Positions 2,241 through 43,325 of a stretch of 64,000 bases of DNA are shown piece after piece. The first letter of the stretch is position 1. Each line of letters opens with the position of its first letter. The DNA comes from a bacterium. Its GTDB lineage: Bacteria > Electryoneota > Electryoneia > Electryoneales > Electryoneaceae. The position numbers and the translations under genes were made by a program. Location of the stretch: NCBI GenBank assembly GCA_963669175.1, contig OY769902.1, positions 2,464,001 to 2,528,000 of the forward strand, read 5' to 3'. The notes below the pieces were generated by a model, which saw only the letters and a list, made by a program, of their open reading frames with translations, was not told where the DNA came from and ran no database searches.

Positions 2241-2241
2241 T

Positions 2242-20614: not shown

Positions 20615-23071
20615 ATGAGAATCCGTCTTGGTTCAGTCCTGTTCCTGCTATTCCTGGCTGGAAATGTTCTTGCGCAACAGGTTGGTTCCCTTCGGATAGG
20701 AATCGTCACGGATGGTCCGCATCCGTTTTCTGATCTGGCTCGCAGGTATATTCAGGAAGAAATTACATCCCTGCTGGATGGAGAATACGAGGTCGAGTTT
20801 CCGGCACGCATGCAGGTGACCTGTGACTGGTCAGCAAATGGGGTGCGAAAAGCGATCATGACGCAGATGGTAGATCCCGAATGTGATATCGTGATTGCTT
20901 CCGGGCCGGTTGCATCGTATATCGGCGCAACTCTCGAAATGTATCCCAAACTGCTTATCGCTCCCTTTGTTTTTAATCCAAACCTGCCTGCCATTCCTTA
21001 TTCAGAAGGAACTTCCGGCAAAGAAAACCTGACCTATATGACCGTTCCCGGCCTGTGGCAGGAAGACTTGCAGGTATTCCACGGTATCACACCATTCACA
21101 AAACTGGCGGTATTGGCGCCCGAAACCATGACGGAAGAGATTCCGCAATGTGGCGAAAATTTTCGTGCGGTTGCGCTTCAGCATGGTATTGAGTTGACAG
21201 CAATCCCGGTTGGTTCGGACCCAAACAGTGTCCTGGAGCAGATCGGCCCGGATATTGAAGCGGTTTATATCGGCTCCCTGTTACCCCTGGATGATGAAGA
21301 CACCCGGTGGTTGATACAGAAACTGATCGAACGTGATCTGCCGACATTTTCGTTGCTTGGCTGGTTTGATGTGCAGCGTGGAGTGCTTGCCGGACGAACC
21401 ACGGATGAATTCCTGGTGCAACGTGCTCGTCGGGTGGCGCTGGATATCATGCGTGTAATGAATGGAGAGAAAGCAGAAGATTTGCCGGTTATTACCAGCA
21501 GTAGCAGTAAACTGGTTATCAACAAAACGACGATGCGAAAGCTGGGTGTTTCACCGGCCTGGGATATTATCGCCGCCGCTGAAATGATCGTGACGGAAAA
21601 GGAAAGCATCGAAAGAAAGTTGTCACTGGCCGATGCCATGCGTGAGGCAGTGGAAGTCAATCCTGATCTCCTGGCGGAACGGCTTGCGGTTGAGAGTGGC
21701 AAGCAGGATGTACGCTTGGCGTGGTCCAACTGGTTGCCGTCGGTAGATCTGTCTGCAACAGGCGCATTTATCGATGAGGATCGAGCTGAGGCCAGCATGG
21801 GACAGGCTGCCGAACGGACATTCAGCGGGGAAGGGCAGGTGAACCAGTTGCTTTTCTCTGAACCGGCCATGGCGAATGTATCCATCCAGAAAAAATTGCA
21901 GGCACAACGGGAATACCATCTGAAACAAGTGAAGCTTGATATCGCCCTGGATGCTGCGGAAGCGTATTTAACACTGCTCCAGACTAAGGCGATGGAACGA
22001 ATCAGCCGTGAGAATCTGCGGGTAAGTCGTGAAAACCTCGAATTGGCGCGTGTGCGTGAAGCCATCGGTTCAGCCAGCGCATCGGAGGTCTATCGTTGGG
22101 AAGCGGAGATCGCCAGCAATACCATTGACGCCATCAATGCCAACAGCCGTAGAAACCTGGCCGAAATGCAACTGAATCGTGTGTTGCGCAGACCGACAGA
22201 AGAAGCCTTTGAAACACTGGAAAAGGACATCAACGACACCATGCTGATCGAAGCAAACAGTCGAGTCCTGAAATATTTTGATGATCCGCTCAGCTTCAAA
22301 TTGCTGAGATCCTACCTCGTGGAAGCCGGGTTGGCGAACTCGCCGGAAATAGCCCAGCTTGACCAGGCCATAGCAGCCCAGAAGAGGCAGCTTAGGTCCA
22401 CAAAGTTCTCGCATTTTGCACCGACGGTCGGCGTGATGCTTTCCGTGGAAAACGTATTTGATCGTTCAGGCGCCGGGACCGGTTCTTCCGCTTCGGGGGA
22501 ATCGTTTGGCAGCATTATGTACGGTCTGAATGAAGTACGAGTGGTAAATGGATTGACACCGGTGATGATGTCCAGCTTCCCGGAAGCGGACGATGTCAAC
22601 ATGACCATCGGCATCAATGTATCCTTGCCCCTGTTTGAGGGTGGGGCCAAGTTCGCTCGCAGGCAGCAGGCTTCTGTGGAAGTGAGCAAACTGGAAATGC
22701 AGCGTCGTTCACTGGCTGACAAGCTGGAGCAGAATATCCGGTCAACACTTCATACTGTTGGCGCTTCCTACGCCAGTATCCGACTCAGCCGTCAGGCTGC
22801 CGAAGCAGCGGATAAATCCTATGCAGTCGTAAGTGATTATTACGCGCAGGGAATGGTTGGGATCATAGAGTTGCTGGATGCGCAGAACATGGCGCTGCAA
22901 GCGGATCTGGCCGCAGCGAACGCTCTTTACCAGTTCCTGCTGGATTTTATGAATATGCAGCGCGCTCTTGGGCAGTTTGAAATCTTCGAAGAACCGGATG
23001 ACATAGATGCCGCATATAATGACATGGATGCCTTTATCGAGAACACCAAGGCCAGCCTTGGCGTACACTAA
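20615..23071 (+). CDS. TolC-family outer membrane protein with an N-terminal ABC substrate-binding-like domain
   Basis: Signal peptide, then a ~300 aa alpha/beta domain ending KLVINKTTMRKLGV (resembling ABC_sub_bind). The TolC-type region follows (LSLADAMREAVEVNPDL, SLPLFEGG, YAQGMVGIIELLDAQ). First gene of the RND operon. Confidence 0.82.
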   Translation: MRIRLGSVLFLLFLAGNVLAQQVGSLRIGIVTDGPHPFSDLARRYIQEEITSLLDGEYEVEFPARMQVTCDWSANGVRKAIMTQMVDPECDIVIASGPVASYIGATLEMYPKLLIAPFVFNPNLPAIPYSEGTSGKENLTYMTVPGLWQEDLQVFHGITPFTKLAVLAPETMTEEIPQCGENFRAVALQHGIELTAIPVGSDPNSVLEQIGPDIEAVYIGSLLPLDDEDTRWLIQKLIERDLPTFSLLGWFDVQRGVLAGRTTDEFLVQRARRVALDIMRVMNGEKAEDLPVITSSSSKLVINKTTMRKLGVSPAWDIIAAAEMIVTEKESIERKLSLADAMREAVEVNPDLLAERLAVESGKQDVRLAWSNWLPSVDLSATGAFIDEDRAEASMGQAAERTFSGEGQVNQLLFSEPAMANVSIQKKLQAQREYHLKQVKLDIALDAAEAYLTLLQTKAMERISRENLRVSRENLELARVREAIGSASASEVYRWEAEIASNTIDAINANSRRNLAEMQLNRVLRRPTEEAFETLEKDINDTMLIEANSRVLKYFDDPLSFKLLRSYLVEAGLANSPEIAQLDQAIAAQKRQLRSTKFSHFAPTVGVMLSVENVFDRSGAGTGSSASGESFGSIMYGLNEVRVVNGLTPVMMSSFPEADDVNMTIGINVSLPLFEGGAKFARRQQASVEVSKLEMQRRSLADKLEQNIRSTLHTVGASYASIRLSRQAAEAADKSYAVVSDYYAQGMVGIIELLDAQNMALQADLAAANALYQFLLDFMNMQRALGQFEIFEEPDDIDAAYNDMDAFIENTKASLGVH

Positions 23072-24207
23072 TGATTGATTTTCAAACACCAACGATTCGG
23101 GGGAGAATAGCCGTGAAACGGATATCGTCAGCTTGGATAGCAGGTGCATTGGCAGGAGTGATATTCTTTTCCTCTTGCTCGAAGGAAGAGGTTGAGACTG
23201 AGCCGTTAATCCGTCCCGTTCGCTATACGGAAGTGATGGTGACCGGCGGCTCACGGCTTCGCACGTTTTCCGGAGTGGCGCATGCCGGTGTTGAGTCGCA
23301 ATTGAGTTTCAAGGTAGCGGGACAAGTCGCCAGGGTAAACGCGCGGGTTGGCGACCAGGTCAAGCGTGGGCAAACCCTGGTCACTCTCGACACCAAGGAC
23401 TACCGTTTGCAGGTACAGGAAGCGGAAGCGGCGCTGGCCCAGGCGCAGGCGCAGTTGCGCAACGCGAAATCGGCTTTCGACCGTACCATGAGCCTGTATG
23501 AAGTGAATAATGCGTCCAAATCGCAGCTTGACCAGGCGCGTGCCGGGTATGAATCGGCCCTGCACCAGGTGGAAAGCATTGAGAAAAGGCTCGAGCTGGC
23601 ACGATTGCAGGTAAACTACTGTACCCTGGAAGCGCCCTCGGATGGTTCGATCAAGGCTGTCAATGTAGAAGCGGACGAGAATCTCAGCCCGGGACAGCCC
23701 GTGGTGATTCTTACTTCCAGTGGACGGCCTGAAGTGAAGGTGACTGTTCCGGAAATGCTGATCAGCCAGGTAAAGCGTGGTAGCTCAGCAAAAGTGAAGT
23801 TTGATGCTGTATCCGGAACAGAGTTTGACGCGACAGTGACCGAAGTCGGCGCGGCCTCAACCGGGTTCGCATCTACATTTCCGGTGACGGTACGTTTAAA
23901 CGCCAACTCAGACAAAATCCGTCCCGGTATGGCCGCGGAAGTATCCTTCCGGTTTGAAACTGCCGGGACACAGGAACGCTTGCTTGTACCGGCTGTGTCG
24001 GTGGGTGAAGATCAGAATGGCCGCTTTGTATACGTACTGGTTCCGGCAGAAGAGGACGGATTCGGCATTTGCAAACGTACAGCGGTGAGTGTCGGGGAGC
24101 TGACGTCTGAAGGGTTGGAAATCACCAGTGGCCTGAAGGAAAATGACCTGGTGGTGACTGCCGGAGTTTCTAAAATCGACGATGGACAAAAGGTCAAGCT
24201 ACTATAA
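23071..24207 (+). CDS. RND efflux periplasmic adaptor (membrane fusion protein)
   Basis: Lipobox FFSSC, LSFKVAGQV..VGDQVKRGQ.L, coiled hairpin, APSDG and RPGM. Confidence 0.93.
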   Translation: MIDFQTPTIRGRIAVKRISSAWIAGALAGVIFFSSCSKEEVETEPLIRPVRYTEVMVTGGSRLRTFSGVAHAGVESQLSFKVAGQVARVNARVGDQVKRGQTLVTLDTKDYRLQVQEAEAALAQAQAQLRNAKSAFDRTMSLYEVNNASKSQLDQARAGYESALHQVESIEKRLELARLQVNYCTLEAPSDGSIKAVNVEADENLSPGQPVVILTSSGRPEVKVTVPEMLISQVKRGSSAKVKFDAVSGTEFDATVTEVGAASTGFASTFPVTVRLNANSDKIRPGMAAEVSFRFETAGTQERLLVPAVSVGEDQNGRFVYVLVPAEEDGFGICKRTAVSVGELTSEGLEITSGLKENDLVVTAGVSKIDDGQKVKLL

Positions 24208-24220
24208 GGAGGGCAGGACC

Positions 24221-27200
24221 ATGTCCATCACACGTGCTGCTATAGAAAAAAGCAGGGTAAGTATCGTAGCGCTGCTGATTGTCCTGTTCGGTGGTGTGAT
24301 CTCTTATATTAGAATGCCACAACGTGAAGACCCCGGCTTTACGATCCGAGTTGCCGTGGTAACCACACGCCTTCCCGGCGCCAGCCCGGAACGAATGGAA
24401 GAATTAGTTACCGATCCCATCGAAGCGGTAGTGCAACAGATCCCCGAGTTGGATTTTGTCTCTTCCACTTCCATGACCGGCATTTCATTCGTCTATGTCA
24501 ACATTAAGGAAAGCTATTCCAACATGCGTCCCATCTGGGACAATCTCCGCCGCAAAATTGATGGCATGAGGGAGGAACTACCTTCCGGGGTAATCGGGCC
24601 GGATGTGGACGATGAATTCGGGGATGTTTTTGGCATCCAGATCGCCATGACCGGGGAAGGGTATTCCTATAGCGAACTGGATGAAGTGGCCAAAGATGTT
24701 CGCGATGAACTGCTGAAGTTGCGAGATGTTGCCAAGGTCGATATTTATGGAGTTCAGGCGGAAAGAGTTTTCATCGAGTATAACAATGCTCGCCTGGCCC
24801 AACTGGGAATCTCGCCCGGACAACTTCAGAACATGCTGGCCAGCCAGAATATCATCAGCCCGGGTGGCAAGGTTACTACTGGTCGCGAACGTATCATCCT
24901 GGAACCAACCGGTAACTTCGAGACCATTGAAGAAATTCAGCGGATGGTGATTGCGTTACCGCAAACCGGGGATATGGTCTACCTGGGTGATATTGCCAAT
25001 GTATATCGTGGCTATATCGATCCTCCTGAATCAAAAATGCGCGCCGGTGGGCATCAGTGTCTTGGACTGGGCGTTTGCCTTCGTGACGGTGGCAGTATCA
25101 TTCGGCTCGGTGAAGAAGTCAAGGCGACATTGCGATTCCTGGAAACTCAATATCCTATCGGGATCGAGTTTGATATTTTCTATTTTGAGCCGAAGGAAGT
25201 AGAAAACAGTGTAAACGATTTTCTCAGCAACCTGATCCAGGCCATTGTACTGGTGATCCTGGTGATGCTGCTGTTCCTTGGGTGGCGGACCGGGCTGGTT
25301 GTCGCTTCGTTGATCCCCATGGCCATGTTGCTTTCCTTTATGATTATGAACATGGTTGGGATCACACTGAACATGATCTCCCTGGCGGCCTTGATCATCG
25401 CCCTGGGATTGCTGGTCGATAACGCCATCGTGGTCAGTGAATCCATTATGGTCAAGATGGAGCAGGGGATACCGGCTGTTGAAGCGGCTGTGGATAGCGC
25501 CAAAGAGTTACGTATACCCTTGCTGACATCATCCCTGACAACGGCAGTAGCCTTCTTGCCGATTTATCTCGCAGATTCACAGGTCGGTGAATACACTGCC
25601 GACTTGTTCAAGGTTGTCACCATTGCCCTGCTGTCTTCGTGGATCCTGGCCATGACCATGATTCCGTTATTTGCAGTGGCCATGATCCGTGTAAACAAGA
25701 AGAAGAAAGACAGGTCACAGGAAGATGTTTTTGATACTCGATTCTATCGTGGGTATCGTGGCATGATCATGTTCATGCTGAAGCACCGTGCGCTTAGTCT
25801 TATTGGAATTATCATCATCTTCTTCGCTTCAACGCAGTTGACTCGCGTTATCCCGGCCATGTTTTTTCCTTCGACGGACAAGGGCTTTATTCGAGCTACG
25901 CTGGAGATGCCGGTTGGGACTCCCATTGAGATCACCGAGCAGATTGCAACAGATCTGGAACAGTACATGGTCGACAGCCTGTTAGTCAACGACGATCGTG
26001 AAGAAGGATTAATCAACTGGGCCTGCTGGATCGGTGATAAGGGGCCACGCTATACCCTGGGTGCAGATGCCGGTGGCAGGATGGAGCATGTTGCCAAGTT
26101 TATCATCAACACGACCACTCGTGAGTCTGCGGACAATGCGATAGAGCGAATGGAAGCTTATTTATGGGACAGGTATCCCGATCTGAAAGCAAAGGTCAAG
26201 CCGCTAGATTATGGGCCGCCAGTTGATTCACCCATTGAGATTCGCTTGTACGGAAAGGACTATGATGATCTTTTCCAGATCGTAGCCCGGATCAAGCATC
26301 ATTTGAAGGGCATGTCCGGAACCCGTAATGTTGAGGATAACTGGGGACCGCAGGTAAAGAAACTCATGGTTCATATTGACCAGCCTCGGGCCAAACGCGC
26401 CGGTGTATCCAGCCAGGATATCGCGCTTAGCCTGAACACATATCTCAGTGGTTTCCAGGTCAGTGAATTTCGTGAGGATGAAGACGCTCTGCCGGTAATC
26501 ATGCGTGCGGAACAGACAGATCGTGAAGATATCAGCAAACTGGAAACGCTGGATGTATTCGCGCAGGCATCCGGCAGGACAGTACCGCTTAAACAGGTGG
26601 CTGATATACAAGTGACCTGGCAACCTTCACAGATTTTACGGCGTGATCGCAACCTGGCAGTAAGTGTTACCTCGGATGTATTGCCCGGTGTTTCGGAAAT
26701 GGACCTGGTGACAACGGAGATTCTGCCCTGGCTTGAAGAAGAGTCGAAAAATTGGCCTTTGGGGTACACGTATGAACTGGGTGGCGCGAACGAGGCCAGT
26801 GATGAAGCGAATGCGTCTATCGCGGCTCAATTGCCCTTGGCATTTGGACTCATGGTGTTATTGCTGGTGGCGCAGTTTAACAGTTTCCGGAAACCGTTGA
26901 TCATCCTGCTAACCATACCGCTTGCCCTGATCGGTGTTTTTATCGGCTTGGCGATCATGCGTGGTATCCTGGGGTTCATGACCTTCCTTGGGATCATTTC
27001 GCTGGCTGGAATTGTTATTAATAACGCTATTGTGCTGATTGACCGGATAGATATTGAGCGGGATGAGAACAAGCTGGAAGCGGCACGGGCTGTGATTGAG
27101 GCGGCGCAGCAACGGTTGCGTCCGATTCTGCTGACAACTGCGACAACAATCTGCGGTTTGATACCCCTGTATCTGTTTGGCGGGCCGATGTGGGAATCCA

Positions 27201-27313
27201 TGGCTATCGCGATCATGTGGGGATTGATCTTCGCCACATTCCTGACGCTGGGCGTTGTGCCGATCCTGTATTCGCTGTTCTATAAAGTCAGCTTCAAGAA
27301 GTTCCAGTATTGA
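24221..27313 (+). CDS. RND efflux permease (AcrB/AcrD/AcrF family)
   Basis: About 1030 aa; PGASPE, GLLVDNAIVV, GIVINNAIVL and RLRPILLT; RBS AGGAGG. Confidence 0.95.
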   Translation: MSITRAAIEKSRVSIVALLIVLFGGVISYIRMPQREDPGFTIRVAVVTTRLPGASPERMEELVTDPIEAVVQQIPELDFVSSTSMTGISFVYVNIKESYSNMRPIWDNLRRKIDGMREELPSGVIGPDVDDEFGDVFGIQIAMTGEGYSYSELDEVAKDVRDELLKLRDVAKVDIYGVQAERVFIEYNNARLAQLGISPGQLQNMLASQNIISPGGKVTTGRERIILEPTGNFETIEEIQRMVIALPQTGDMVYLGDIANVYRGYIDPPESKMRAGGHQCLGLGVCLRDGGSIIRLGEEVKATLRFLETQYPIGIEFDIFYFEPKEVENSVNDFLSNLIQAIVLVILVMLLFLGWRTGLVVASLIPMAMLLSFMIMNMVGITLNMISLAALIIALGLLVDNAIVVSESIMVKMEQGIPAVEAAVDSAKELRIPLLTSSLTTAVAFLPIYLADSQVGEYTADLFKVVTIALLSSWILAMTMIPLFAVAMIRVNKKKKDRSQEDVFDTRFYRGYRGMIMFMLKHRALSLIGIIIIFFASTQLTRVIPAMFFPSTDKGFIRATLEMPVGTPIEITEQIATDLEQYMVDSLLVNDDREEGLINWACWIGDKGPRYTLGADAGGRMEHVAKFIINTTTRESADNAIERMEAYLWDRYPDLKAKVKPLDYGPPVDSPIEIRLYGKDYDDLFQIVARIKHHLKGMSGTRNVEDNWGPQVKKLMVHIDQPRAKRAGVSSQDIALSLNTYLSGFQVSEFREDEDALPVIMRAEQTDREDISKLETLDVFAQASGRTVPLKQVADIQVTWQPSQILRRDRNLAVSVTSDVLPGVSEMDLVTTEILPWLEEESKNWPLGYTYELGGANEASDEANASIAAQLPLAFGLMVLLLVAQFNSFRKPLIILLTIPLALIGVFIGLAIMRGILGFMTFLGIISLAGIVINNAIVLIDRIDIERDENKLEAARAVIEAAQQRLRPILLTTATTICGLIPLYLFGGPMWESMAIAIMWGLIFATFLTLGVVPILYSLFYKVSFKKFQY

Positions 27314-28714: not shown

Positions 28715-28984
28715 ATGCACGATCGCAGGATATCTACGGCAATTACTTCAGGTGTAGTACTTCTGTTCATTGTGCTTTCTGGTGGCGCCCTTTCATTGTG
28801 CTACCTGCGACATTTCCGAACGACAGGTCTGATAATCGGTTCAATTGTGATCCTGATTGTTGGATTGGCATTTTTTGTAAGGGTAGCTAACTTTTTCCGC
28901 AGAGACTATGAACCTCCTCTTCTCGATGATGAAGAAGAGGAGGAGCGTATAATGCGAGCGCTTCGTGATGAAGAAGAGTGGTAA
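28715..28984 (+). CDS. Small hypothetical membrane protein (2 TM, acidic C-terminal tail)
   Basis: RBS-like GAGGG before the ATG at 28715; two hydrophobic segments followed by DDEEEEE. Confidence 0.6.
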   Translation: MHDRRISTAITSGVVLLFIVLSGGALSLCYLRHFRTTGLIIGSIVILIVGLAFFVRVANFFRRDYEPPLLDDEEEEERIMRALRDEEEW

Positions 28985-29014: not shown

Positions 29015-30193
29015 TTATAAACCTTCGATAAACGCCAACCTAGAGTATCGATCCGAAGCAAAGTCCATCAGGAAGGGTCTTTCCAGCCGTTTCAGGTTTT
29101 TGTCGTACAGCAACAGGATTTCCGGACGATGCAGGTTCTCCGGGTTTACACGCGCAACAACTCCCCGATACCCTACAATATCCATGTTAGTCGCCTGTTC
29201 GACCATGACATTGGTGCCCACAGGGAACACGTTAATGATCGAAATAGCTTCCTTCACAACTGCGGGATGGAACCAGGTTCCGCTCAGCTTTATTAAGCGT
29301 CCCACGGCTTCGATAGGTGAAACCGGTTCCCGTTCAATACGGGCATTCACGAGATTATCGAAGTAGTTGGCTACAGCAATGATATCCGCATAGCGGAAGA
29401 TTGTACCGTGACTTTTTCTATTCTCATGAGGCGCTTCCGGGTCACCCACAAGCCCATCGGGAAAGCCGCTGCCATCATAGCGTTCATGATGCTGCTGAAT
29501 ACCGACGATGGTTGCGGGATCGATCTGACGGTCGTCCATGAGAATGTCGCCGCCAAGAATAGGATGCTGGCGATACTCTTTCTCCTGCTCCTCGGTCCGG
29601 TCGGCAGGATGGATCTTGTCGATATCATCTTCAAGAAGGCTTTTTCCGATGTCGTGAAGCATTGCAGCCTGGGATAATTTATTCAGTTCTGAAACACTGT
29701 AATAAAGACGCTGGCCGATCATGGAACTGAGCATGGCGACATCAAACGAGTGGTTAAACCCCGAACCAGTCGTCTGCATGGAAGTCGGATAGTAAAATCG
29801 CACACTATTGTTGGTCAGGCTGGATAATAACTTCTCCGAAGCTCTGCGCATCAGCATGGTCTGGCCACTGCTTTTGCGAAGCGAACGCATCATGGTGCTG
29901 GATTTCTGCTTGCCATGTGCACCTTTATCGCGTGCAACCGCCTCTGCAGTGTACTCATCGAACGCTTCGTATACTGATTTCTTATCCTTAATATCGACGA
30001 TTTCTTCAGGGACAATGTTTTCTGTCCCGTTTTCATTGATATAAACATACTTGTAATCCATAGCCTTGAGTTTTTCGATAAAGGCTACGGAGAGTTCAAC
30101 ACTTTGCCCAAGAAGCAGTCTGAAATGGCGATCATAAACGGGGCGGGCGAGAACCATACCTGGTCGTAACATGTGAATAGCACACTGACGCAC
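29015..30193 (-). CDS. HD-GYP domain protein (putative c-di-GMP phosphodiesterase)
   Basis: LRPGMVLARPVYD N-terminus, HS..V, LHDIGK, HHERYDGSGFP and IIAVANYFDNL. Confidence 0.88.
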   Translation of the reverse strand: MRQCAIHMLRPGMVLARPVYDRHFRLLLGQSVELSVAFIEKLKAMDYKYVYINENGTENIVPEEIVDIKDKKSVYEAFDEYTAEAVARDKGAHGKQKSSTMMRSLRKSSGQTMLMRRASEKLLSSLTNNSVRFYYPTSMQTTGSGFNHSFDVAMLSSMIGQRLYYSVSELNKLSQAAMLHDIGKSLLEDDIDKIHPADRTEEQEKEYRQHPILGGDILMDDRQIDPATIVGIQQHHERYDGSGFPDGLVGDPEAPHENRKSHGTIFRYADIIAVANYFDNLVNARIEREPVSPIEAVGRLIKLSGTWFHPAVVKEAISIINVFPVGTNVMVEQATNMDIVGYRGVVARVNPENLHRPEILLLYDKNLKRLERPFLMDFASDRYSRLAFIEGL

Positions 30194-35584: not shown

Positions 35585-36907
35585 TTATCCGCGTACGGTT
35601 CCACGCAGGGTGAATCCACGCAGCTCATTGATTCTTACTGGTACAATTTGTCCTGGTGAAACCGGTCCGGGAACTACGACAACATGTCCCGCTGGGGTGC
35701 GCCCCATGTATTCGGACGGGTCTTTGGCGCTGGGGGTCTCGATCAAGACTTCCAGTTCACGGCCTATTTGCGCTTCCCTTTTCTTTCGTCCGCTTTCCCG
35801 CACAATCTTGCCCAATTTGGTCAAGCGTTCTATTTTGACCTGGTTGGGGACGTCATCCTCCAGCTTTGATGCTGCCGTACCGGGACGTTCTGAATAGCGA
35901 TAGACAAACGCATCATCATAGTCCGCCCAGCGTACCAGCGCTTCCGTAGCCTGGTAATCCTCATCCGTCTCTCCGGGGAATCCTACGATGATATCCGTAC
36001 TGAGGTAGAGGTCCGGAATTTTGCGGGCGGCTTCGACGAGGCAACGATAATGCGCATTGGTATACCCACGCCCCATTCGTTTGAGAATACGGTCGCTTCC
36101 GGCTTGCATCGGAAGATGAAGCTCCGGACATACCGGAGAACCGGAACCGAGAACATCCAGCAGTTTGGACGACAGGTCTTTGGGGTGGGACGTGATAAAA
36201 CGCAGTCGTTTTACTCCGTCTACACGAGCGGCCTGTTCCAGCAGCCAGCCGAAATCCTGACCGTCATCATGCCAGGAATTAACATTCTGGCCCAACAGGG
36301 TGACCTGTGGAAATCCCTGCGCAACGGCGTCTTCGATTTCGCGCAGGATCGCTTCAGCTTTCCGGTATCGTTCACGTCCTCGAGCATACGGCACCACGCA
36401 ATACGTGCAGAAGTTGTTGCAGCCCCGAGTAATCACGACCCAGGCATTAACACCGTCACGCCTCGCCGGGGCCAGCTCCTCATACAATTCATCCGATGGG
36501 CCTTCGGTCAGAACGACCGGGCCTTTGCGGTCAGACAGCGTGTTTAACAGTCCGGGCATGCTGCGGTAGGTATCAGGACCAAGCACCCAGTCCAGGAAAG
36601 GCAGACGTTCCGCGACCATGTCGCCGGTGTGTGAGGCCATGCAGCCAATTACACCGATGCGTACATCCGGGTTGGCATCTTTGTACTTCTGGAACTGGGA
36701 TATGTTGGTGATAGCACGTTCCTGCGCGTGTTCACGTACGATACAGGTGTTCACCAGGATGATTCCCGCTTCATCGGGATTCTCAGTACGTTGATACCCG
36801 TTTTCCTCGAGCATGGTGAGTACCAGCTCGCTATCGGCGAGGTTCATCTGGCATCCGTAGGTCTTGATGAAGACCTTACCGCTGTCTTGCTGTTGTATGC
36901 TGTTCAT
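35585..36907 (-). CDS. miaB: tRNA-2-methylthio-N6-isopentenyladenosine synthase
   Basis: TYGCQMN, NTC.VRE.A, radical SAM motif CNNFCTYC, LLGQNVNS and a TRAM domain. Confidence 0.96.
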   Translation of the reverse strand: MNSIQQQDSGKVFIKTYGCQMNLADSELVLTMLEENGYQRTENPDEAGIILVNTCIVREHAQERAITNISQFQKYKDANPDVRIGVIGCMASHTGDMVAERLPFLDWVLGPDTYRSMPGLLNTLSDRKGPVVLTEGPSDELYEELAPARRDGVNAWVVITRGCNNFCTYCVVPYARGRERYRKAEAILREIEDAVAQGFPQVTLLGQNVNSWHDDGQDFGWLLEQAARVDGVKRLRFITSHPKDLSSKLLDVLGSGSPVCPELHLPMQAGSDRILKRMGRGYTNAHYRCLVEAARKIPDLYLSTDIIVGFPGETDEDYQATEALVRWADYDDAFVYRYSERPGTAASKLEDDVPNQVKIERLTKLGKIVRESGRKKREAQIGRELEVLIETPSAKDPSEYMGRTPAGHVVVVPGPVSPGQIVPVRINELRGFTLRGTVRG

Positions 36908-36989
36908 GGGGGCAAGGTAAGAAAACAGGACAAGAGAATGAGACGGAGAGAGCTGAACAGGGGAGGCCGGGAGCGCTCCACTTTTTCAC

Positions 36990-37341
36990 TGAATTTACAG
37001 GATGCACAGGATATCAAGGATGGACTGAATATTTCTCATTGTATAACAATCTGGGAAAATGGGGACTGCCACACTTTTCGCTTACGAATTGCGAGGAACA
37101 TTAACAGTATATCATTTTTCTGCATAGTCATTGCCTGCTGGAATTTTTTGCGAAAAGGTGGCTGTCCCAACATTTTCCTGTCCGGGATCATTCTGTAGCT
37201 GCAGGCGAAAAATCTGGTACAGTTACCTTTTCATTAATAATGGTTTGACTGTCCTGTATCCGAAGACATGAAAAGGTAACAGTCCCAATTTTCACCTGCT
37301 TTTCTACGCCTTCTTCCTTGTCCTGTTCATCCTGTATATTC
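36990..37341. repeat. CAGGAT-family inverted-repeat element enclosing the B+A composite
   Basis: GAATTTACAGGATGCACAGGATATCAAGGA (from 36991) pairs with TCCTTGTCCTGTTCATCCTGTATATTC (37315-37341). Confidence 0.75.
37054..37299. repeat. Composite inverted-repeat element, copy 2, reversed (B 37054-37178 + A 37201-37299)
   Basis: The reverse complement of unit A matches 43446-43536 at about 87/91 positions by hand alignment, spacer included. Confidence 0.88.
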
Positions 37342-37367
37342 TGCTATCAGGTGTGTACACTCGAGAG

Positions 37368-37397
37368 TTGAAATCGACAGCGAGAAGTGAGTATACT
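37368..37397 (+). promoter_or_regulatory. Putative sigma70 promoter of the ABC-F gene
   Basis: TTGAAA(37368-73)-18 bp-TATACT(37392-97). Confidence 0.6.
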
Positions 37398-37409
37398 ATC
37401 CATACCACA

Positions 37410-37511
37410 AGGAGGAGAGCGATGATAAACTGACAGTCCATTCAGTAAAAGGTAAACAGGATAGCCGGATTTGATCCGGTTATGTGGTGTTGTTTCCCGG
37501 AGGACTGTCGT
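37410..37511 (+). promoter_or_regulatory. Leader with uORF Met-Ile-Asn (37422-37433) and an RBS-sequestering stem; putative translational attenuator
   Basis: AGGAGG-AGAGCG-ATG ATA AAC TGA. GACAGTCC (37432-39) is complementary to GGACTGTC (37502-09), which overlaps the ABC-F RBS. Inner hairpin at 37461-37483. Confidence 0.75.
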
Positions 37512-39014
37512 ATGTCTGCTCAACTTATTCTTACCGATTTGCATTTTTCCTATACCAGCGCTGTGGATGTCCTGGCAGATGTGTCCGTATGTCTGTCAAC
37601 CGGATGGACCGGTGTGATTGGACCCAACGGTAGCGGCAAGAGTACGTTGTTACGTATCCTGGCTGACGAGTTATCCGTTGCCCCCGGCATGCTGCAGAGA
37701 GTCCCGTCCGATATGGTAATCCGTTACTGCCCGCAACGAGTCAGCGAACTTGATGATGAGATTCGCACATTCTCGGAAAGCTGGGATGGACTGGCGCTAC
37801 GGATGATGGCCCAACTGGAGCTGGAACCTGATGACCTGGAGCGATGGGATACGCTTTCGCCGGGGGAACGCAAACGCTGGCAAATCGCTGCGGCGTTGCA
37901 TGTCCAACCGGAACTTCTTCTTCTGGATGAGCCGACCAACCATCTCGATACAGAGGCACGTAAACTCCTGTACAACACGCTGTCCGGGTACCGAGGTGTC
38001 GGTTTGCTGGTGTCGCATGACCGTGAATTTCTGGACAACTTGACGTATTCGACTATTCGTGTGCAACCCGGCGGGAAAGTGCAGCACTATTCCGGCTGCT
38101 ACAGCGATGCTCGCGAACAATGGCTGGCGGATGAGGCACATATTCGAAGTACACGTGAGCAATTGCAGTCCGAACGTCGCAAGCTGCGTAGACGTCTGGA
38201 AACGGCAAGCCGTTCGCGCGAGAAAGCGGAATCCAGCGTGAGTACCGGAAAGCGCATGAAGGGTAAACATGACACCGATGCCCGAAGCGTGATGGCAAAG
38301 GGAAGGGTGAAAAACGCCGAACAGAAACTGGCGCGTGGCATGTCCGTCGTGCGAGGGAAACTTGAACGTACTGAACGTGAAGTTGAGCAGTATCGTGTTG
38401 AAAAACAGATCGGACGTTCCGTGTTCGTGCTGGAAGAATCTGCCCCGAAACAGGACTTATTGACTCTGAGGCAGGACTTTGTATCGGTGGGTGATACTAT
38501 CCTGCTGCATAATGTGGATGTCCAGATTCAGCGCGACAGCCGTATTCACCTTCGTGGACCCAACGGATGCGGCAAAACGACCCTGATCAAAGAGTTGATA
38601 CAGGCGTCACAACTGCCGGAAAACCGGATACTCTTTCTCCCGCAGGAGCTTTCTGAAGATCAGATTGATGAAATGCTTCATGATGTCGCCCATATACCCG
38701 GGCAGGAAAAGGGACGCCTGATGCAGATTGTTGCGGCGTTGGGTGTGCCGCCGGAACGGTTGATGCTGTCGGGACGTCCTTCGCCGGGAGAAGCAAGGAA
38801 ATTGCATCTGGCGGTAGGGTTATCACGTCAGGCGTGGTTGCTGATTCTGGATGAACCGACCAATCACCTGGATCTGCCCAGCATAGAACGACTGGAAGAA
38901 GCGCTGGTGGACTACGCCGGCGCTATCCTGCTGGTGAGTCATGACGAGCGGTTTGCCCGGGGCATCACGGATTCAAACTGGAGTATCTATGGCAGGGCGC
39001 TGCACTTGGGGTAA
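37512..39014 (+). CDS. ABC-F family ATPase (antibiotic-resistance ARE-like, long interdomain linker)
   Basis: Two NBDs (GPNGSGKS, GPNGCGKT), LLDEPTNHLD twice, VSHD twice, no TM segments, and a long basic helical linker. Confidence 0.9.
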   Translation: MSAQLILTDLHFSYTSAVDVLADVSVCLSTGWTGVIGPNGSGKSTLLRILADELSVAPGMLQRVPSDMVIRYCPQRVSELDDEIRTFSESWDGLALRMMAQLELEPDDLERWDTLSPGERKRWQIAAALHVQPELLLLDEPTNHLDTEARKLLYNTLSGYRGVGLLVSHDREFLDNLTYSTIRVQPGGKVQHYSGCYSDAREQWLADEAHIRSTREQLQSERRKLRRRLETASRSREKAESSVSTGKRMKGKHDTDARSVMAKGRVKNAEQKLARGMSVVRGKLERTEREVEQYRVEKQIGRSVFVLEESAPKQDLLTLRQDFVSVGDTILLHNVDVQIQRDSRIHLRGPNGCGKTTLIKELIQASQLPENRILFLPQELSEDQIDEMLHDVAHIPGQEKGRLMQIVAALGVPPERLMLSGRPSPGEARKLHLAVGLSRQAWLLILDEPTNHLDLPSIERLEEALVDYAGAILLVSHDERFARGITDSNWSIYGRALHLG

Positions 39015-39021
39015 GATCTCT

Positions 39022-39175
39022 GGTTGAATTTACAGGATGATAAGGATGAAAAGGATAGCAAGGATAACAGAATAATTTTTACGATTATACATTACGAAAA
39101 TGAAAGGATGTTATCCTTAGAATTTGTTTTATCCTGTTTAATCCTTCCTATCCTGTTCATCCTGTGAATTCAACC
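39022..39175. repeat. CAGGAT-family inverted-repeat element
   Basis: GGTTGAATTTACAGGATGA...TCATCCTGTGAATTCAACC, with internal 9-bp AGGAT/ATCCT sub-repeats. Confidence 0.8.
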
Positions 39176-39186
39176 TGTTGCGAGCA

Positions 39187-40401
39187 TCACGTTCTGAACA
39201 GGACATTTTCCTTCTTGAAAGTCCGCACGGTCAGCATGATTCCCACTGCTGCCCAGACCGTAGACGACAGAAGTGTATTCAGGATCATGGTCATGTCCGG
39301 GTTGCTCTCGATGATGTTCTTCATCGCCAGTGAAACATTCAGCACCGGAATCCAGGCTTCCTGGGCAGACATCTCCTTGCCGGGCGCCATGGACATCATG
39401 GCTGGGATGAAGATCAGCATCATCAGGGGGGAGAGGTAGGATTGCGCCTCACGCATGGACTTGGCGTAAATCGAGATTGTCATGAGCAGGGAAGAGAGGA
39501 ATGCCGTCAATGGAATCATCAGCAACAGGATCAGCAGGATACTGGTCATATCCAGCGAGAACGTGATGCCTTCCGGGATTTCCGAGGAAATGAGCATATC
39601 CATGCCGTAAGCCAGGGATATGGTCAGCGAGAAAATTGCGATCACAACGGTAATCAGGGAAACTGTCATGATGGTAAAGAACTTCCCGAGAACAATTTCC
39701 AGCCGTGATGCCGGGCTTACCAGCAATGTTTCCAGCGTGGACCGTTCCTTTTCACCCGCAGTAAGGTCCATGGCTGCATACATACCGCCGGTCAGAGTCA
39801 GCAGGATAATCATGTAGGGCATGAGTATTCCAAGCAGCCTGCCGGACATTTCTTTATCCGAAGCGGTGTTAATAATGGACCACTGGAAGGGCTCGAGTAT
39901 GGTTTGCGGCGCGCCGATGGCGTCCAGCTTCTGCTTGGACATCTCCTGCCGGATCAGCTCCAGAGCGTCTTCAACCCGTTCCCTGGCGATTAATGCCTGG
40001 TCATCACTTTTGTTTACGTAAAGTTTCAGACGGTCGCTGGTCGATTCAAGTATACCGACCGGACGTTCCGGCAGAATCAGCAATACCTGCAACGCGCCAT
40101 CTGCCAGCAGCATATGCGCGGCATCTTCCTGGGCCGGGTTAAAATCCTGGACCGTGGTATTGGGCGCAAGCATTTGCAGCTTCTGAACCAAAGCGGGTGA
40201 ATAGTTACCGTTGATGACACCGACTGTGTAGGTCCGCGATTCCAGGTCTTCCATGCTCTTGGTCATCACCAGACCCATGACCAGGTACACCAGTGGAATG
40301 GTAACCAGTGGCGCTACGATCATGGACAGCAGGGTGCGACGGTCACGCAGAATATCCAGAATCTCTTTTTTGTAGATTAAGACAAGGTTGGCAAACTTCA
40401 T
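39187..40401 (-). CDS. ABC-2 permease, NatB (Na+ export)-like
   Basis: KKEILDILRDRRTL, AMDLTAGEKERSTLETLLVSP.SR.EIVLGKF and AKSMREAQSY. Confidence 0.88.
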   Translation of the reverse strand: MKFANLVLIYKKEILDILRDRRTLLSMIVAPLVTIPLVYLVMGLVMTKSMEDLESRTYTVGVINGNYSPALVQKLQMLAPNTTVQDFNPAQEDAAHMLLADGALQVLLILPERPVGILESTSDRLKLYVNKSDDQALIARERVEDALELIRQEMSKQKLDAIGAPQTILEPFQWSIINTASDKEMSGRLLGILMPYMIILLTLTGGMYAAMDLTAGEKERSTLETLLVSPASRLEIVLGKFFTIMTVSLITVVIAIFSLTISLAYGMDMLISSEIPEGITFSLDMTSILLILLLMIPLTAFLSSLLMTISIYAKSMREAQSYLSPLMMLIFIPAMMSMAPGKEMSAQEAWIPVLNVSLAMKNIIESNPDMTMILNTLLSSTVWAAVGIMLTVRTFKKENVLFRT

Positions 40402-40406
40402 CAGGT

Positions 40407-41819
40407 CTATTTCCCGTTCTGTCCGTTTCCGTTGTAATGCTCTTCCAGCGCTTTTTCACGCTTTTTGGGATTGATCCGGCTTTCCAGTTCGTTGATTATA
40501 TCTTCCAGTGTTTCAATCCCGGCCGCACGACGTGAGGCTTCGCTACGTTTCCGCATCCATTTCTTCAGCCATATCCATGTCTTTTCACCCGGCCATTCCC
40601 ATTCAGTTCCCGACGCGCCGGCAAGGACATCGTCCACTTCCTGCAATGAGATAGTCGCCGGATCTCGCGACAAGAGAATCGTCATCTCATTATCGCCGGC
40701 CCTTTGGATCAAATGACCACAACGCAGTTTTTCCGCGATTTCTTCTGCAACTTTCGGAGGAACACTGAACCGTGCGCTCCATTCGCCCAGCATCACATCA
40801 CGCCTGATACCACGAAAAGCGGAGGTCGCTTCGGTCAGCATAAGATAAGCCAGCGCGTCATGCTGGTTCCGTGAGAAAGTATAGTTCTTTCTCTTGGTGA
40901 GCAGGAGGGAGTAATGCTGTGTAACGAAACTGATCTCGACACCAATGAGCAGCACTTGCCAGGCGAGATTGATCCAGATCAGGATCAGGGGAAGCACTGC
41001 CATGGAACCGTAGATGACGTCGTACTGAACCAGACGTCCGGTATAGGCAATGAACCCCTGCTTCACGGTTTCGTATAACACACCGGCTACAATAGCGCCG
41101 AGCAGAGCTGCCCGGTTTCGGACAGAGGTCTTCGGCAGAAACCGGTATAACAGGAAGAAGCTCAATGTGACCAGCAGAAACGGTACCAACTGGTTTAATA
41201 ATGACTGGGCAAAGGTTATTCGCTCTACTGCCTGGTGAACCATGGGTAAGGCGCGTATATAAGTTGAAACGGCAAAGGAACCGACGATAAAAATTGGAAT
41301 GATTGTAACCAGTCCCCAGTAAACCGGCAGACGTTTTAATCCACCAGTTTTGGCGTTGATGCCCCAAATGCTGTTAAAGGTGGATTCAATCCCGGAGAAG
41401 ATGGCATAGACAGCCACAACCAGCATGACCACACCAATCCCGCCGAGGGTAGCGCTGCCTGCGTTGTCGATGACCTGTTCAATCGTTTCAACAACCTTCG
41501 GGCCACTGCCCGGGGCGAGGGTCGCCAGAATGAACGGGCGAATTGATTCATCGAACCACTTGGACCCGCCAAAAAGTTTGAAAACACTGAAGGAAATGAC
41601 CAGCAGCGGGATTAACGATAACAGGGTAGCGTAAGTCAGCCCCATGCTGCGTAGCATCAGACGGTCGGCGATGAACTCGCGTGCCGTTATCACAATAAAA
41701 CGGACCACACGAATGAGTACTCGTGAGAACGGTGACGAAACATTATCGTGGGTTTCGTCAAAGATGTTGATCGAGCGTAACGCTCCAACTTTGTCTTTTA
41801 GCAGCATGGACACACTCAT
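40407..41819 (-). CDS. YihY/BrkB family membrane protein with a C-terminal HTH-like extension
   Basis: LTYATLLSLIP, IESTFNSIW, LLYRFLP and Y..IYGS.A.LP..L.WI...W..LL.G.EI, plus a ~150 aa cytoplasmic tail. Confidence 0.87.
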   Translation of the reverse strand: MSVSMLLKDKVGALRSINIFDETHDNVSSPFSRVLIRVVRFIVITAREFIADRLMLRSMGLTYATLLSLIPLLVISFSVFKLFGGSKWFDESIRPFILATLAPGSGPKVVETIEQVIDNAGSATLGGIGVVMLVVAVYAIFSGIESTFNSIWGINAKTGGLKRLPVYWGLVTIIPIFIVGSFAVSTYIRALPMVHQAVERITFAQSLLNQLVPFLLVTLSFFLLYRFLPKTSVRNRAALLGAIVAGVLYETVKQGFIAYTGRLVQYDVIYGSMAVLPLILIWINLAWQVLLIGVEISFVTQHYSLLLTKRKNYTFSRNQHDALAYLMLTEATSAFRGIRRDVMLGEWSARFSVPPKVAEEIAEKLRCGHLIQRAGDNEMTILLSRDPATISLQEVDDVLAGASGTEWEWPGEKTWIWLKKWMRKRSEASRRAAGIETLEDIINELESRINPKKREKALEEHYNGNGQNGK

Positions 41820-41858
41820 ACCGGAACATGCACTGTTAAGGCGTCTGATTGCAAGGGA

Positions 41859-43127
41859 TCAGGCCGATTTATCCACACGGTCGAACATGATCACCGCCGA
41901 CTCCCGAGCATGAGCGATAATCTCCTCTTCGCCTTCGATTTCGCGATGCCGCATAAGCAACGCGCCATCACAAACAACACTGTCCACCACAGAACCACCG
42001 GCAGCGTATACGAGCTGGCTGGTCAGGTTGTGAAGCGGCACCATCTCGGGACGGTTCTGGTCAATCAGGATGAAGTCCGCAGCAGCGCCAACCTTGATCT
42101 CATGGTTGTTCAAGCCGAAGAACTCGGACGATGCTTCAGTAGCCATGCGAATGGCTTCTGTTGCGGGCAGTGCGGTGGGATCGACATCAACCTGCTTTTG
42201 CAGTAGCGCCGCGACCTTCATGGTCTCGAACATGTCCAGGTTATTGTTTGAACCTGCCCCGTCCGTAGCCAATGCCATCCGGGCTCCGGCTTTTTGCAGT
42301 CGGGCATGGGGGAATGCGCCACCGACGGCCAGTTTCATGTTGCTGATCGGGTTGTGGGCGCAAAGGACACGGTTCGCCGCCAGTAACTCAACATCCTCAT
42401 CGGTCAGGTTTACCGTATGGGCCGCGACCATCCGTTCCGACAGGCAACCCAGGGTCTGGAGATATACGACCGGAGTCAGCCCATGTTTCGCCTGGCAGTC
42501 GCTGACTTCCTGTGTTGTTTCAGACAGGTGGATGTGCAGCGGAATGTTCTTATCTGCCGTAAACTCAGCCGCCCAGCGAAGTGAATCACCTGAAACCGTA
42601 TAAATGGCATGCGGCGCAACCGCAAACTGAATACGGTTTGAGTATTGCGAGGATTCCTCGTAAAGACGTTGGTTCAGTTCGCGTTGTTTTTTCGCCTGTT
42701 CCGGGTTGTCCATGTCGAGAAATACAGCAGACAGGCAGGCTTTCATGCCCATTTCGTCAACGGCCTTTGCCACTGCACGCAGATCCCAGTACATATCGTT
42801 AAAGAATACGGTACCTGAACGGATCATCTCGAGCATGGCCAGTTTTGTGCCCCAATAAATCTCTTCCGCCTGAATCCTGGTTTCGTAGGGCCAGACACGA
42901 TTCTGTAACCATTCCATAAGGGGAAGGTCATCTCCGTTGCCACGAAACAACGTCATGGCGGCGTGGGTGTGAGCGTTGTTCATGGGCGGGTGGGCGATCA
43001 TTCCATGACCGTCAAAAACCTCATCTGCGGCCAGCTCTTCACCAATCGCCGTAATTTTTCCGTCATGGCAGAAGATGCTAGTCTTCTTCCCATCTAACAG
43101 TATGTTATCAACACGTAATGTCGGCAT
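41859..43127 (-). CDS. Amidohydrolase, 5'-methylthioadenosine/S-adenosylhomocysteine deaminase-like
   Basis: NAHTH, LMEWL, PHAIYT, HIHLSET, HNPISNMKL and TDGAGSNNNLDMF. Confidence 0.88.
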   Translation of the reverse strand: MPTLRVDNILLDGKKTSIFCHDGKITAIGEELAADEVFDGHGMIAHPPMNNAHTHAAMTLFRGNGDDLPLMEWLQNRVWPYETRIQAEEIYWGTKLAMLEMIRSGTVFFNDMYWDLRAVAKAVDEMGMKACLSAVFLDMDNPEQAKKQRELNQRLYEESSQYSNRIQFAVAPHAIYTVSGDSLRWAAEFTADKNIPLHIHLSETTQEVSDCQAKHGLTPVVYLQTLGCLSERMVAAHTVNLTDEDVELLAANRVLCAHNPISNMKLAVGGAFPHARLQKAGARMALATDGAGSNNNLDMFETMKVAALLQKQVDVDPTALPATEAIRMATEASSEFFGLNNHEIKVGAAADFILIDQNRPEMVPLHNLTSQLVYAAGGSVVDSVVCDGALLMRHREIEGEEEIIAHARESAVIMFDRVDKSA

Positions 43128-43325
43128 GGTTGTTTTCCCGGTACGTATCGTTGGTTGTGTAAACTGGAGACGATTCAGGATAGCTGTTGTCTTTTGTTCA
43201 ATCGGACTGCTGCGCACCTTGAATGGTCAATTCCCAAATATCCCGAATATAGGCCGAAGAGAAGGATAGAAAAAGGAGTAGCTCCTGATCGGATAAGGTT
43301 ATGTTCGAAAGCGGTTTCAGTTTAT

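Follow-up and report, generated by a model that had tools for sequence, protein, structure and literature searches.

What does an open reading frame (ORF) of three codons, preceded by a full Shine-Dalgarno sequence, do in front of a gene for an ABC-F ATPase? The question is raised by positions 37368 to 39014 of a 64-kb stretch of contig OY769902.1 (hereafter the window), which comes from a bacterium of the phylum Electryoneota. The original prediction was of an ABC-F gene controlled by a Met-Ile-Asn (MIN) leader peptide and inducible by antibiotics. The evidence gathered here points, with reasonable though far from full confidence, to a leader that acts as a ribosome-dependent translational attenuator, senses drugs binding the peptidyl-transferase centre (PTC), and controls an antibiotic-resistance (ARE)-like ABC-F in a diderm of the FCB group. 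The promoter, strong ribosome-binding site (RBS), three-codon ORF, and complementary segments of the original prediction were all found in place, and the elements of the cassette are as follows.

37368-37373 and 37392-37397, + strand: promoter-like site, TTGAAA and TATACT separated by 18 nt (10/12 matches)
37409-37417, + strand: Shine-Dalgarno sequence of the upstream ORF (uORF), AAGGAGGAG, which contains AGGAGG (6/6) and ends 6 nt 5' of the ATG
37422-37433, + strand: uORF ATG ATA AAC TGA (Met-Ile-Asn-stop), the proposed ribosome-stalling sensor
37417-37443, + strand: 5' arm of the predicted sequestering helix, with its perfect core GACAGTCC at 37432-37439, in the minimum free energy (MFE) and centroid structures
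37461-37483, + strand: apical hairpin of 10 bp capping the long helix, from the fold
37497-37521, + strand: 3' arm of the predicted sequestering helix, with GGAGGA at 37499-37504, GGACTGTC at 37502-37509, and the ATG at 37512
37512-39014, + strand: ABC-F gene, encoding a protein of 500 aa (P0001)
38109-38423, + strand: interdomain linker, residues 200-304, basic and extended, a candidate antibiotic-resistance domain

The ORF listing opens the ABC-F frame at an earlier ATG, 37482 (510 aa). However, no Shine-Dalgarno sequence precedes that codon and the N-terminus read from 37512 (MSAQLILTDLHFSY) agrees with the family consensus MSSQ..LS.LSFSY; therefore the gene is taken as 37512-39014, with 500 aa. 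Transcription probably starts near 37404, judging from the promoter-like site, which would leave a leader of about 108 nt before the ABC-F gene. Shine-Dalgarno-like motifs lie 5' of many long ORFs in the window, so initiation dependent on such motifs is credible in this host.

The central observation is that the end of the uORF is complementary to the place where ribosomes would load on the ABC-F gene. The ABC-F Shine-Dalgarno sequence, GGAGGA (37499-37504), lies 7 nt 5' of the ATG, and GACAGTCC (37432-37439) is perfectly complementary to GGACTGTC (37502-37509), which overlaps it. In the fold of 37395-37530, this 8-bp core sits within a longer interrupted helix, 37417-37443 with 37497-37521 (MFE of -43.3 kcal/mol, z = -2.89, equalled by 3 of 200 shuffles), so that the claimed pairing of uORF end and RBS stands and extends beyond the perfect core. 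The 5' arm holds the last base of the uORF Shine-Dalgarno sequence, the entire uORF, and 10 nt past its stop codon, and the 3' arm holds the Shine-Dalgarno sequence and the start codon of the ABC-F gene. According to the partition function, the ABC-F Shine-Dalgarno sequence is unpaired with a probability of 0.02 in the free RNA. The uORF Shine-Dalgarno sequence is left almost wholly free of the helix, with which it shares just the first pair (37417).

The presence of a ribosome on the uORF was modelled, in thermodynamic terms only, by forcing positions -12 to +15 into single strand, as for a ribosome with the uORF AUG in its P site. This footprint mask abolishes the sequestering helix (the MFE goes from -43.2 to -26.8 kcal/mol) and raises the mean unpaired probability of the stretch from the ABC-F Shine-Dalgarno sequence to the AUG from 0.11 to 0.57. 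A mask for a ribosome at the last sense codon gives the same opening. Thus the expectation that a ribosome on the uORF would free the RBS of the ABC-F gene is borne out in silico.

The fold also bears on a mechanism based mainly on transcription attenuation, as in vmlR, lmo0919, and tiaA, in which the apical hairpin at 37461-37483 and the U-rich run behind it would end transcription prematurely unless a ribosome stalled on the uORF. Most studied ARE-ABCF leaders do use a terminator and an antiterminator, and GUGGUGUUGUUU follows the hairpin. However, the U-run is interrupted and forms no proper U-tract, a terminator scan of 36900-39300 returned 0 terminator-like sites, and the hairpin is unaltered by the uORF mask, so that no antiterminator logic is visible. 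The leader of a homologous locus in Sorangium, described below, is also devoid of any U-tract. Control at the level of termination is thus considered very improbable, and since no terminator is found and the hairpin is insensitive to the mask, the switch is read as translational, not transcriptional. No Rfam family reached its gathering threshold anywhere in the window, and the leader itself gave only noise (E = 9.2).

Chance was assessed with 5000 dinucleotide-preserving shuffles of the 92-nt leader in which the ribosome-binding region was kept fixed. A tiny ORF behind a Shine-Dalgarno sequence is by itself not rare, as it arose in 577 of the 5000 shuffles; its combination with a perfect complement of at least 8 nt to the ribosome-binding region arose in 3. 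These figures are relevant to another explanation, in which the sequestering helix would be functional and the uORF incidental, the helix being opened by temperature, an RNA-binding protein, or a small RNA, or merely stabilising the mRNA. The frequency of the tiny ORF in shuffles favours it, and neither an Rfam family nor any experiment links the uORF to a function. Against it stand the rarity of the joint event, here and in the Sorangium leader, where both uORFs end on the anti-Shine-Dalgarno arm, and the Shine-Dalgarno sequence of the uORF, which is the strongest possible (6/6) and lies almost entirely outside the helix. In addition, a helix of -43 kcal/mol would presumably be too stable for a thermometer. 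An incidental uORF is accordingly held to be decidedly improbable, and a uORF that takes part in an attenuator remains the preferred explanation.

The Sorangium locus came from a scan of genome contigs with two generic family patterns (LLDEPTNH and PGERKRWQ), which matched at least 600 stretches, of which 80 loci were kept. Among the matches listed, only one locus, L001 of Sorangium cellulosum So ce26, encodes a member of the family (49% identical to the window protein), the other 79 being unrelated ABC-F loci. Its leader begins with the Shine-Dalgarno sequence AAGAGGAGAG (2846-2855), followed by a uORF of five codons, GTG AAG ATC AGC TCC TGA (2863-2880), which reads M-K-I-S-S from a GTG start. 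The final two codons and the stop of this uORF are contained in AGCTCCTGAATC (2872-2883), a perfect 12-nt complement of GATTCAGGAGCT (2980-2991), which contains the ABC-F Shine-Dalgarno sequence, located 5 nt 5' of the ATG at 2995. The long-range helix is recovered in the fold (z = -3.25), the 12-nt complement was found in 0 of 5000 shuffles, and the joint event in 0-1 of 5000. When the uORF is masked, the unpaired probability of the stretch from the Shine-Dalgarno sequence to the AUG goes from 0.32 to 0.53, and that of the Shine-Dalgarno sequence from 0.05 to 0.37 with a mask set one base off.

Both loci of the family therefore carry a short ORF, with a Shine-Dalgarno sequence matching at 5/6 or better, that ends exactly on the anti-Shine-Dalgarno arm. 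In each, a leader ORF with its own RBS forms part of the stem that hides the downstream RBS, which is the arrangement of a translational attenuator. This retention of position and logic across two phyla, while both arms changed together, is the strongest argument for function, although it comes from two sequences (n = 2). The expected conservation of uORF and stem thus holds for the layout in this single comparator and fails for the MIN peptide, which is replaced by MKISS. No synteny was found between the window and Sorangium: DJ-1/PfpI and S46 peptidase genes flank the Sorangium gene, and that of the window has a MiaB-like gene on one side and an ABC-2 permease gene on the other.

The distribution of such leaders was surveyed in 91 sources, comprising the window, 79 genome ABC-F loci, and 11 reference loci (locus L029 was dropped because of a broken frame), with a rule that required an ORF of at most 10 codons preceded by a Shine-Dalgarno sequence and a perfect complement of at least 8 nt to the ribosome-binding region. 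Four of the 91 matched: the window, the Sorangium locus, one TiaA-type locus of Streptomyces, and msr(E). No match occurred in the Uup, EttA, YbiT, or YheS clades among these sources. Without the need for complementarity, a tiny ORF with a Shine-Dalgarno sequence was found at 8 of 16 ARE-type loci vs 3 of 68 other ABC-F loci, classes that reflect our own reading of the tree and the annotations, and that leave out seven loci (four with <280 nt upstream, L029, the EttA reference L091, and L018). As a positive control, the scan retrieved the msr(A) leader MTASMRLK; it overlooked the MIN uORF at 2849-2860 of the VmlR-like locus L005 (Peribacillus), a uORF with a weaker Shine-Dalgarno sequence that was found by eye. 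The msr(E) locus of an Acinetobacter plasmid (L083, 224-250), the sole reference ARE locus to match the rule, has a Shine-Dalgarno-preceded short ORF, MLAFVFT, and 8 nt of this ORF are complementary to the region where ribosomes would bind the msr(E) gene.

On the evidence of its sequence, the gene downstream of the leader is that of an ABC-F ATPase. Two ABC_tran domains (PF00005, two stretches) are recognised by Pfam, and each half contains a Walker A, a Walker B, and an H-loop, with invariant columns that include G37-K43, D139-E140, H169, G349-K355, D447-E448, and H477. The 500 residues are accounted for by nucleotide-binding domain 1 (NBD1), the linker, and NBD2, with nothing left over and no C-terminal extension. 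Because the distance between Walker A1 and Walker B1 is 102 aa, vs 140-148 in the four E. coli paralogues, NBD1 is considered to be without the arm insertion. Searches of solved structures gave single colinear alignments to chains of VmlR, VmlR2, MsrE, and LsaA, and domain-by-domain alignments only to those of YheS, Uup, EttA, and YbiT.

The claim of a long basic interdomain linker was also upheld. The distance between Walker B1 and Walker A2 is 210 aa, the longest linker measured (207-218 in the family, n = 24 rows), compared with 169 in EttA, 171 in Uup and YheS, 172 in YbiT, 180 in PoxtA, 196 in a VmlR-like protein, and 204 in MsrA. Linker residues 200-304 contain 29 K+R and 16 D+E, a net charge of +13 over 105 residues, vs 36 K+R and 56 D+E (net -20) in the rest of the protein.

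The phylogenetic trees combined 25 proteins of the family with the 79 genome loci, seven ARE genes as references, and the four paralogues of E. coli; of the ARE5 subfamily (TiaA, LmrC, VarM), they covered three TiaA-type sequences. In four tree analyses the family formed a clade with a support of 100 and a long stem, outside the Uup, EttA, YbiT, and YheS clades (each 99-100), and its placement next to the TiaA-type ARE5 factors is in line with the original prediction. The Streptomyces trio L002/L003/L006 was recovered as its sister with SH-aLRT values of 97 (LG+G4, 115 rows) and 86 (C20 mixture, 52 rows), and the same placement was obtained with FastTree (0.938) and IQ-TREE (90.6/87). The uORF of this trio, M[A/V]GDDDI[S/C]G, corresponds to tiaAL (MVGDDDISG), described for the ARE5 factor TiaA (PMC12421871). 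The family is sister to the TiaA-type trio and not nested in it, with a stem length of 0.96-1.86, and the next neighbour is an ARE4-type clade. The original prediction had named homologues devoid of the MIN ORF and stem, or a grouping with housekeeping ABC-Fs, as observations that would speak against it; the homologue found carries a short uORF and a stem, and the family lies outside the housekeeping clades.

The relatives listed at 46-64% identity number 119, most of them of about 500 aa. The nearest are 56-64% identical, the three with an organism name being metagenome-assembled genomes (MAGs) of Gemmatimonadota, and proteins of about 49% identity are widespread in Myxococcota. A tblastn search of a plasmid collection matched 2151 records, none with an identity above 32.5%, and so yielded no family member, its hits supplying reference ARE genes. 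The window protein is a member of an ARE-like family of about 500 aa, so far uncharacterised, with representatives in MAGs of Gemmatimonadota and in Myxococcota.

The properties of the protein and its leader have to be weighed against a further explanation, in which the switch would be real and dependent on the uORF but would report general translation trouble, the ABC-F being a stress-induced translation factor and not a resistance determinant. Candidate signals would be slow termination at the UGA-C stop, a shortage of release factor or tRNA, or ribosome collisions. Any ribosome dwelling on a three-codon ORF covers the 5' arm, as indicated by the equal opening with the start-codon and last-sense-codon masks, and UGA is the stop codon of every uORF concerned, in the window, the Sorangium locus, and the three loci of the TiaA type. 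Moreover, housekeeping ABC-Fs are described as rescuing difficult translation, and the protein scores below the cut-off of a curated ARE model. However, the family lies outside the four housekeeping clades and beside experimentally shown ARE5 and ARE4-type factors, its linker is the longest measured and it has no arm, as in Msr and VmlR, and a tiny uORF with a Shine-Dalgarno sequence precedes few of the other ABC-F loci and half of the ARE-type loci. A sensor of general translation trouble is therefore regarded as unlikely.

Several observations weigh against a drug-sensing attenuator of an ARE gene. The top NCBIfam match of the protein is NF000355 (ribosomal protection-like ABC-F), in one full-length stretch with 325.4 bits, which does not reach the cut-off of 380, and the 8 of 8 family members tested also fall below it (261-325 bits). 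This model is unspecific, and since a housekeeping-like ABC-F of 647 aa scores 407 bits, it was given little weight either way. The signature motifs are SPGE (LSPGE at residues 115-119, 37854-37868; PSPGE at 423-427, 38778-38792) and not SGGE or SGGQ. Across the 26 members of the family alignment, S116, P117, G118, E119, S424, P425, and G426 never vary and E427 hardly does, and seven of the eight aligned reference ABC-Fs have SGG at both signature sites, E. coli YbiT having APG at the first. Identity to the TiaA type is 31%, and the pairing with it joins two long branches (0.75-1.37 and 0.96-1.86) with supports of 86-97; because two long branches meet, the exact sister is uncertain. Concerning the leader, the ABC-F Shine-Dalgarno sequence itself is still only 0.19 unpaired in the masked RNA of the window, conservation is based on one comparator, and the uORF peptide differs between the two loci. 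Finally, the promoter of the cassette is a plausible consensus match only; matches of this type numbered 4 in 36900-39300 vs 2.4 +/- 1.8 expected from shuffles, and as they are not enriched in the region, the site counts for little by itself.

The gene content of the window gives good support to a diderm host from the FCB group, as originally expected. The best named relatives of the MiaB-like protein are from Candidatus Electryonea (63%), Calditrichota (60%), and KSB1, and Electryoneota is placed in the FCB group by NCBI. The window also encodes a 3-deoxy-D-manno-octulosonic acid (Kdo) transferase, a TolC-like outer-membrane factor with a resistance-nodulation-division (RND) pump, a protein with a type IX secretion system (T9SS) sorting domain, and a SurA-like chaperone. 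The three named close relatives of the ABC-F belong to Gemmatimonadota, unlike the lineages of the MiaB relatives, a mismatch that may reflect sampling or transfer. The RND efflux operon (20615-27313) comprises an outer-membrane factor, an HlyD-type adaptor, and an AcrB-type pump; the outer-membrane factor is an ORF of 818 aa in which the best of two OEP stretches spans only residues 568-786.

The leader peptide of tetQ in Bacteroides is likewise three residues long, and the cat and cmlA leaders use direct pairing between leader and RBS, as in the window. Like the cassette described here, tetQ of CTnDOT is a ribosome-protection gene of the FCB group, for which constitutive transcription and drug-dependent translation through translational attenuation are described; it differs in encoding a Tet(M)/Tet(O)-type GTPase and not an ABC-F, in responding to tetracycline, and in being carried on a conjugative transposon (PMC5418344, PMC3809561). 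In ermC (PMC5418344), and in cat and cmlA as well, a leader ORF has its own RBS and a stalled ribosome masks one arm of the stem that hides the RBS of the resistance gene, but their peptides are longer, macrolides or chloramphenicol are sensed through the nascent chain, and the genes controlled encode methylases, acetyltransferases, or exporters. The suggestion that an inducible module of this kind would be new to the FCB group thus does not hold for ribosome protection under translational attenuation, of which tetQ is an example from a different protein family.

Among ABC-F genes, B. subtilis vmlR (ARE2) presents the same Shine-Dalgarno-preceded Met-Ile-Asn uORF within a stem 5' of the gene, in agreement with the original prediction. 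As described by Takada et al. (2022, PMC9226507), its lincomycin-dependent induction requires translation of the MIN uORF, with a toeprint at +16; stalling at initiation by PTC drugs is the signal, and a hairpin that hides the vmlR Shine-Dalgarno sequence exists. According to the same description, vmlR depends mainly on an intrinsic terminator with an antiterminator and an anti-antiterminator, plus NusG pausing, whereas no terminator was found in 36900-39300 of the window and the uORF arm pairs with the RBS directly. Because the terminator is missing, the leader of the window resembles the translational half of vmlR and does not represent its whole mechanism. The two proteins are about 27% identical and belong to separate clades, and the window host is an FCB-group diderm. 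The further claim that vga(A) is under a MIN leader was not substantiated at the vga(A)-LC locus inspected, where MKIL was read. This tiny ORF, ATG AAA ATT CTG TAG, is located at 64-78 of plasmid locus L081 and starts like the Sorangium uORF (MKI..).

Other uORFs of ARE-ABCFs conferring resistance to pleuromutilins, lincosamides, and streptogramin A (PLSA type) are reported as MR[I/M] for CplR, MK[L/Q] for VmlR2, and MAGN for LsaA (PMC10201436). The leader of C. difficile cplR, with uORF(MRI), also combines a tiny uORF with a hidden ABC-F Shine-Dalgarno sequence, and translational attenuation alone is described as enough for its repression (Obana et al. 2023, PMC10201436); the window shows this translational half. 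According to the same description, the cplR Shine-Dalgarno sequence is hidden in the terminator hairpin, whereas that of the window is in a helix with the uORF itself, and the ABC-F subfamily and the phylum differ. Streptomyces TiaA (ARE5) is the nearest characterised clade in the trees, and tiaAL is likewise short and ends in UGA; unlike the window, tiaA is reported with a 9-codon uORF and terminator/antiterminator control (PMC12421871). TiaA-type proteins are about 545-560 aa long, and their host is actinobacterial. The family resembles, from its published description, the BAF2 group of Murina et al. (2019, PMC6723617) in taxa, ARE5 association, and tree position, a group described from Gemmatimonadetes, Proteobacteria, Actinobacteria, Spirochaetes, and others, associated with ARE5, and predicted to be a novel ARE; no leader is mentioned there in connection with subfamilies and taxa, and no search aimed at leaders was made.

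The mechanism proposed for the window would operate as follows. In the repressed state, the helix of the free mRNA would pair 37417-37443, with the uORF, to 37497-37521, with the Shine-Dalgarno sequence and start of the ABC-F gene, resulting in poor ABC-F translation. Since the strong Shine-Dalgarno sequence of the uORF lies almost entirely outside the helix, ribosomes would nevertheless load there, and in the absence of drug they would make Met-Ile-Asn, terminate at UGA, and leave, allowing the helix to re-form. With a drug that blocks the first peptide bonds (lincosamide, streptogramin A, or pleuromutilin type), the ribosome would stall on the uORF. Its footprint, extending to about +16 nt counted from the AUG (roughly 37438), would cover the 5' arm. 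The helix would be kept open and the ABC-F RBS exposed. The ABC-F would then bind the stalled ribosome, where its extended basic linker would dislodge the drug (ribosome protection), and as removal of the drug would also free ribosomes from the uORF, the switch would close again. For the window gene, induction, drug class, and resistance are inferred. A PTC-binding drug is proposed as the signal because of the work on relatives (the MIN uORF of vmlR, cplR, and other tiny uORFs), and macrolide-type sensing appears unlikely because a three-codon peptide would be too short for the exit tunnel.

A broader reading may be offered tentatively, at somewhat less than even likelihood: the ABC-Fs of about 500 aa that are sister to ARE5 could be native, drug-inducible ribosome-protection factors of environmental diderms (FCB group, Gemmatimonadota, and Myxococcota), each with a uORF of 3-5 codons pairing its own RBS, in which MIN would have arisen independently of Bacillus vmlR. 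In that case, ribosomes behind an outer membrane would be exposed in nature to lincosamide, streptogramin A, or pleuromutilin-like compounds and to selection by them, and an unrecognised reservoir of ARE genes would exist outside Gram-positive bacteria, here between two palindromic elements resembling miniature inverted-repeat transposable elements (MITEs).

The design itself, a ribosome-mediated translational attenuator before a ribosome-protection gene, is known; the novelty appears to lie in its association with an ABC-F family of diderms that is uncharacterised and sister to ARE5. No description of this combination was found in the openly accessible literature searched. What is known of ARE-type ABC-Fs and of the uORF switches in front of them comes almost entirely from Firmicutes and Actinobacteria, and the works consulted describe them as Gram-positive. 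Murina et al. (2019, PMC6723617) predicted some ABC-F groups of Gram-negative phyla as hidden resistance factors, and no follow-up study on such a predicted Gram-negative family was found in the literature searched. The occurrence of leaders of an antibiotic-sensing type, alike in design, in an FCB-group bacterium and in Sorangium provides independent support for that prediction, from regulatory logic and not from the protein. The switch is also a simple and portable test object, about 110 nt long and made up of a three-codon ORF and two arms. Its confirmation would add to the ribosome-protection genes known so far and provide a minimal natural sensor for PTC drugs.

The ABC-F cassette is monocistronic on the + strand, and the genes on either side are on the opposite strand. 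On its 5' side lies the MiaB-like methylthiotransferase gene (35585-36907, - strand), and on its 3' side genes for an ABC-2 permease, a BrkB-family protein, and an amidohydrolase (39187-43217, - strand). The MiaB-like ORF has 440 aa from its first ATG and an identical public protein has 420 aa; translation probably begins some 20 codons further in, near 36847, and the intergenic region that holds the left palindromic element would be longer accordingly.

Two non-coding, palindromic, MITE-like elements flank the cassette in the same orientation, at 36990-37341 (352 nt) and 39022-39175 (154 nt). They have common terminal inverted repeats of about 35 nt with the consensus TGAATTTACAGGATGAACAGGATA..GAAGGAT, in which AGGAT recurs every 9 nt, and the terminal motif occurs four times in the 64-kb window, exactly at their four ends. 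Each folds into a very long hairpin (z = -7.68 and -7.35), and none of the shuffles folded as well. The right element begins 8 nt 3' of the ABC-F stop codon and may act as a bidirectional terminator.

Elsewhere in the window, a twin-ATPase gene at 2227-3699 (490 aa, two ABC ATPase domains) was considered as an ABC-F and rejected, as it corresponds to a fused ATPase of an energy-coupling factor (ECF) transporter (EcfA-EcfA' type). At 28952 (+ strand), an intergenic ORF of 10 codons stands behind a strong Shine-Dalgarno sequence, GGAGG, with a spacing of 8 nt, beside an HD-domain gene (29015-30193, - strand).

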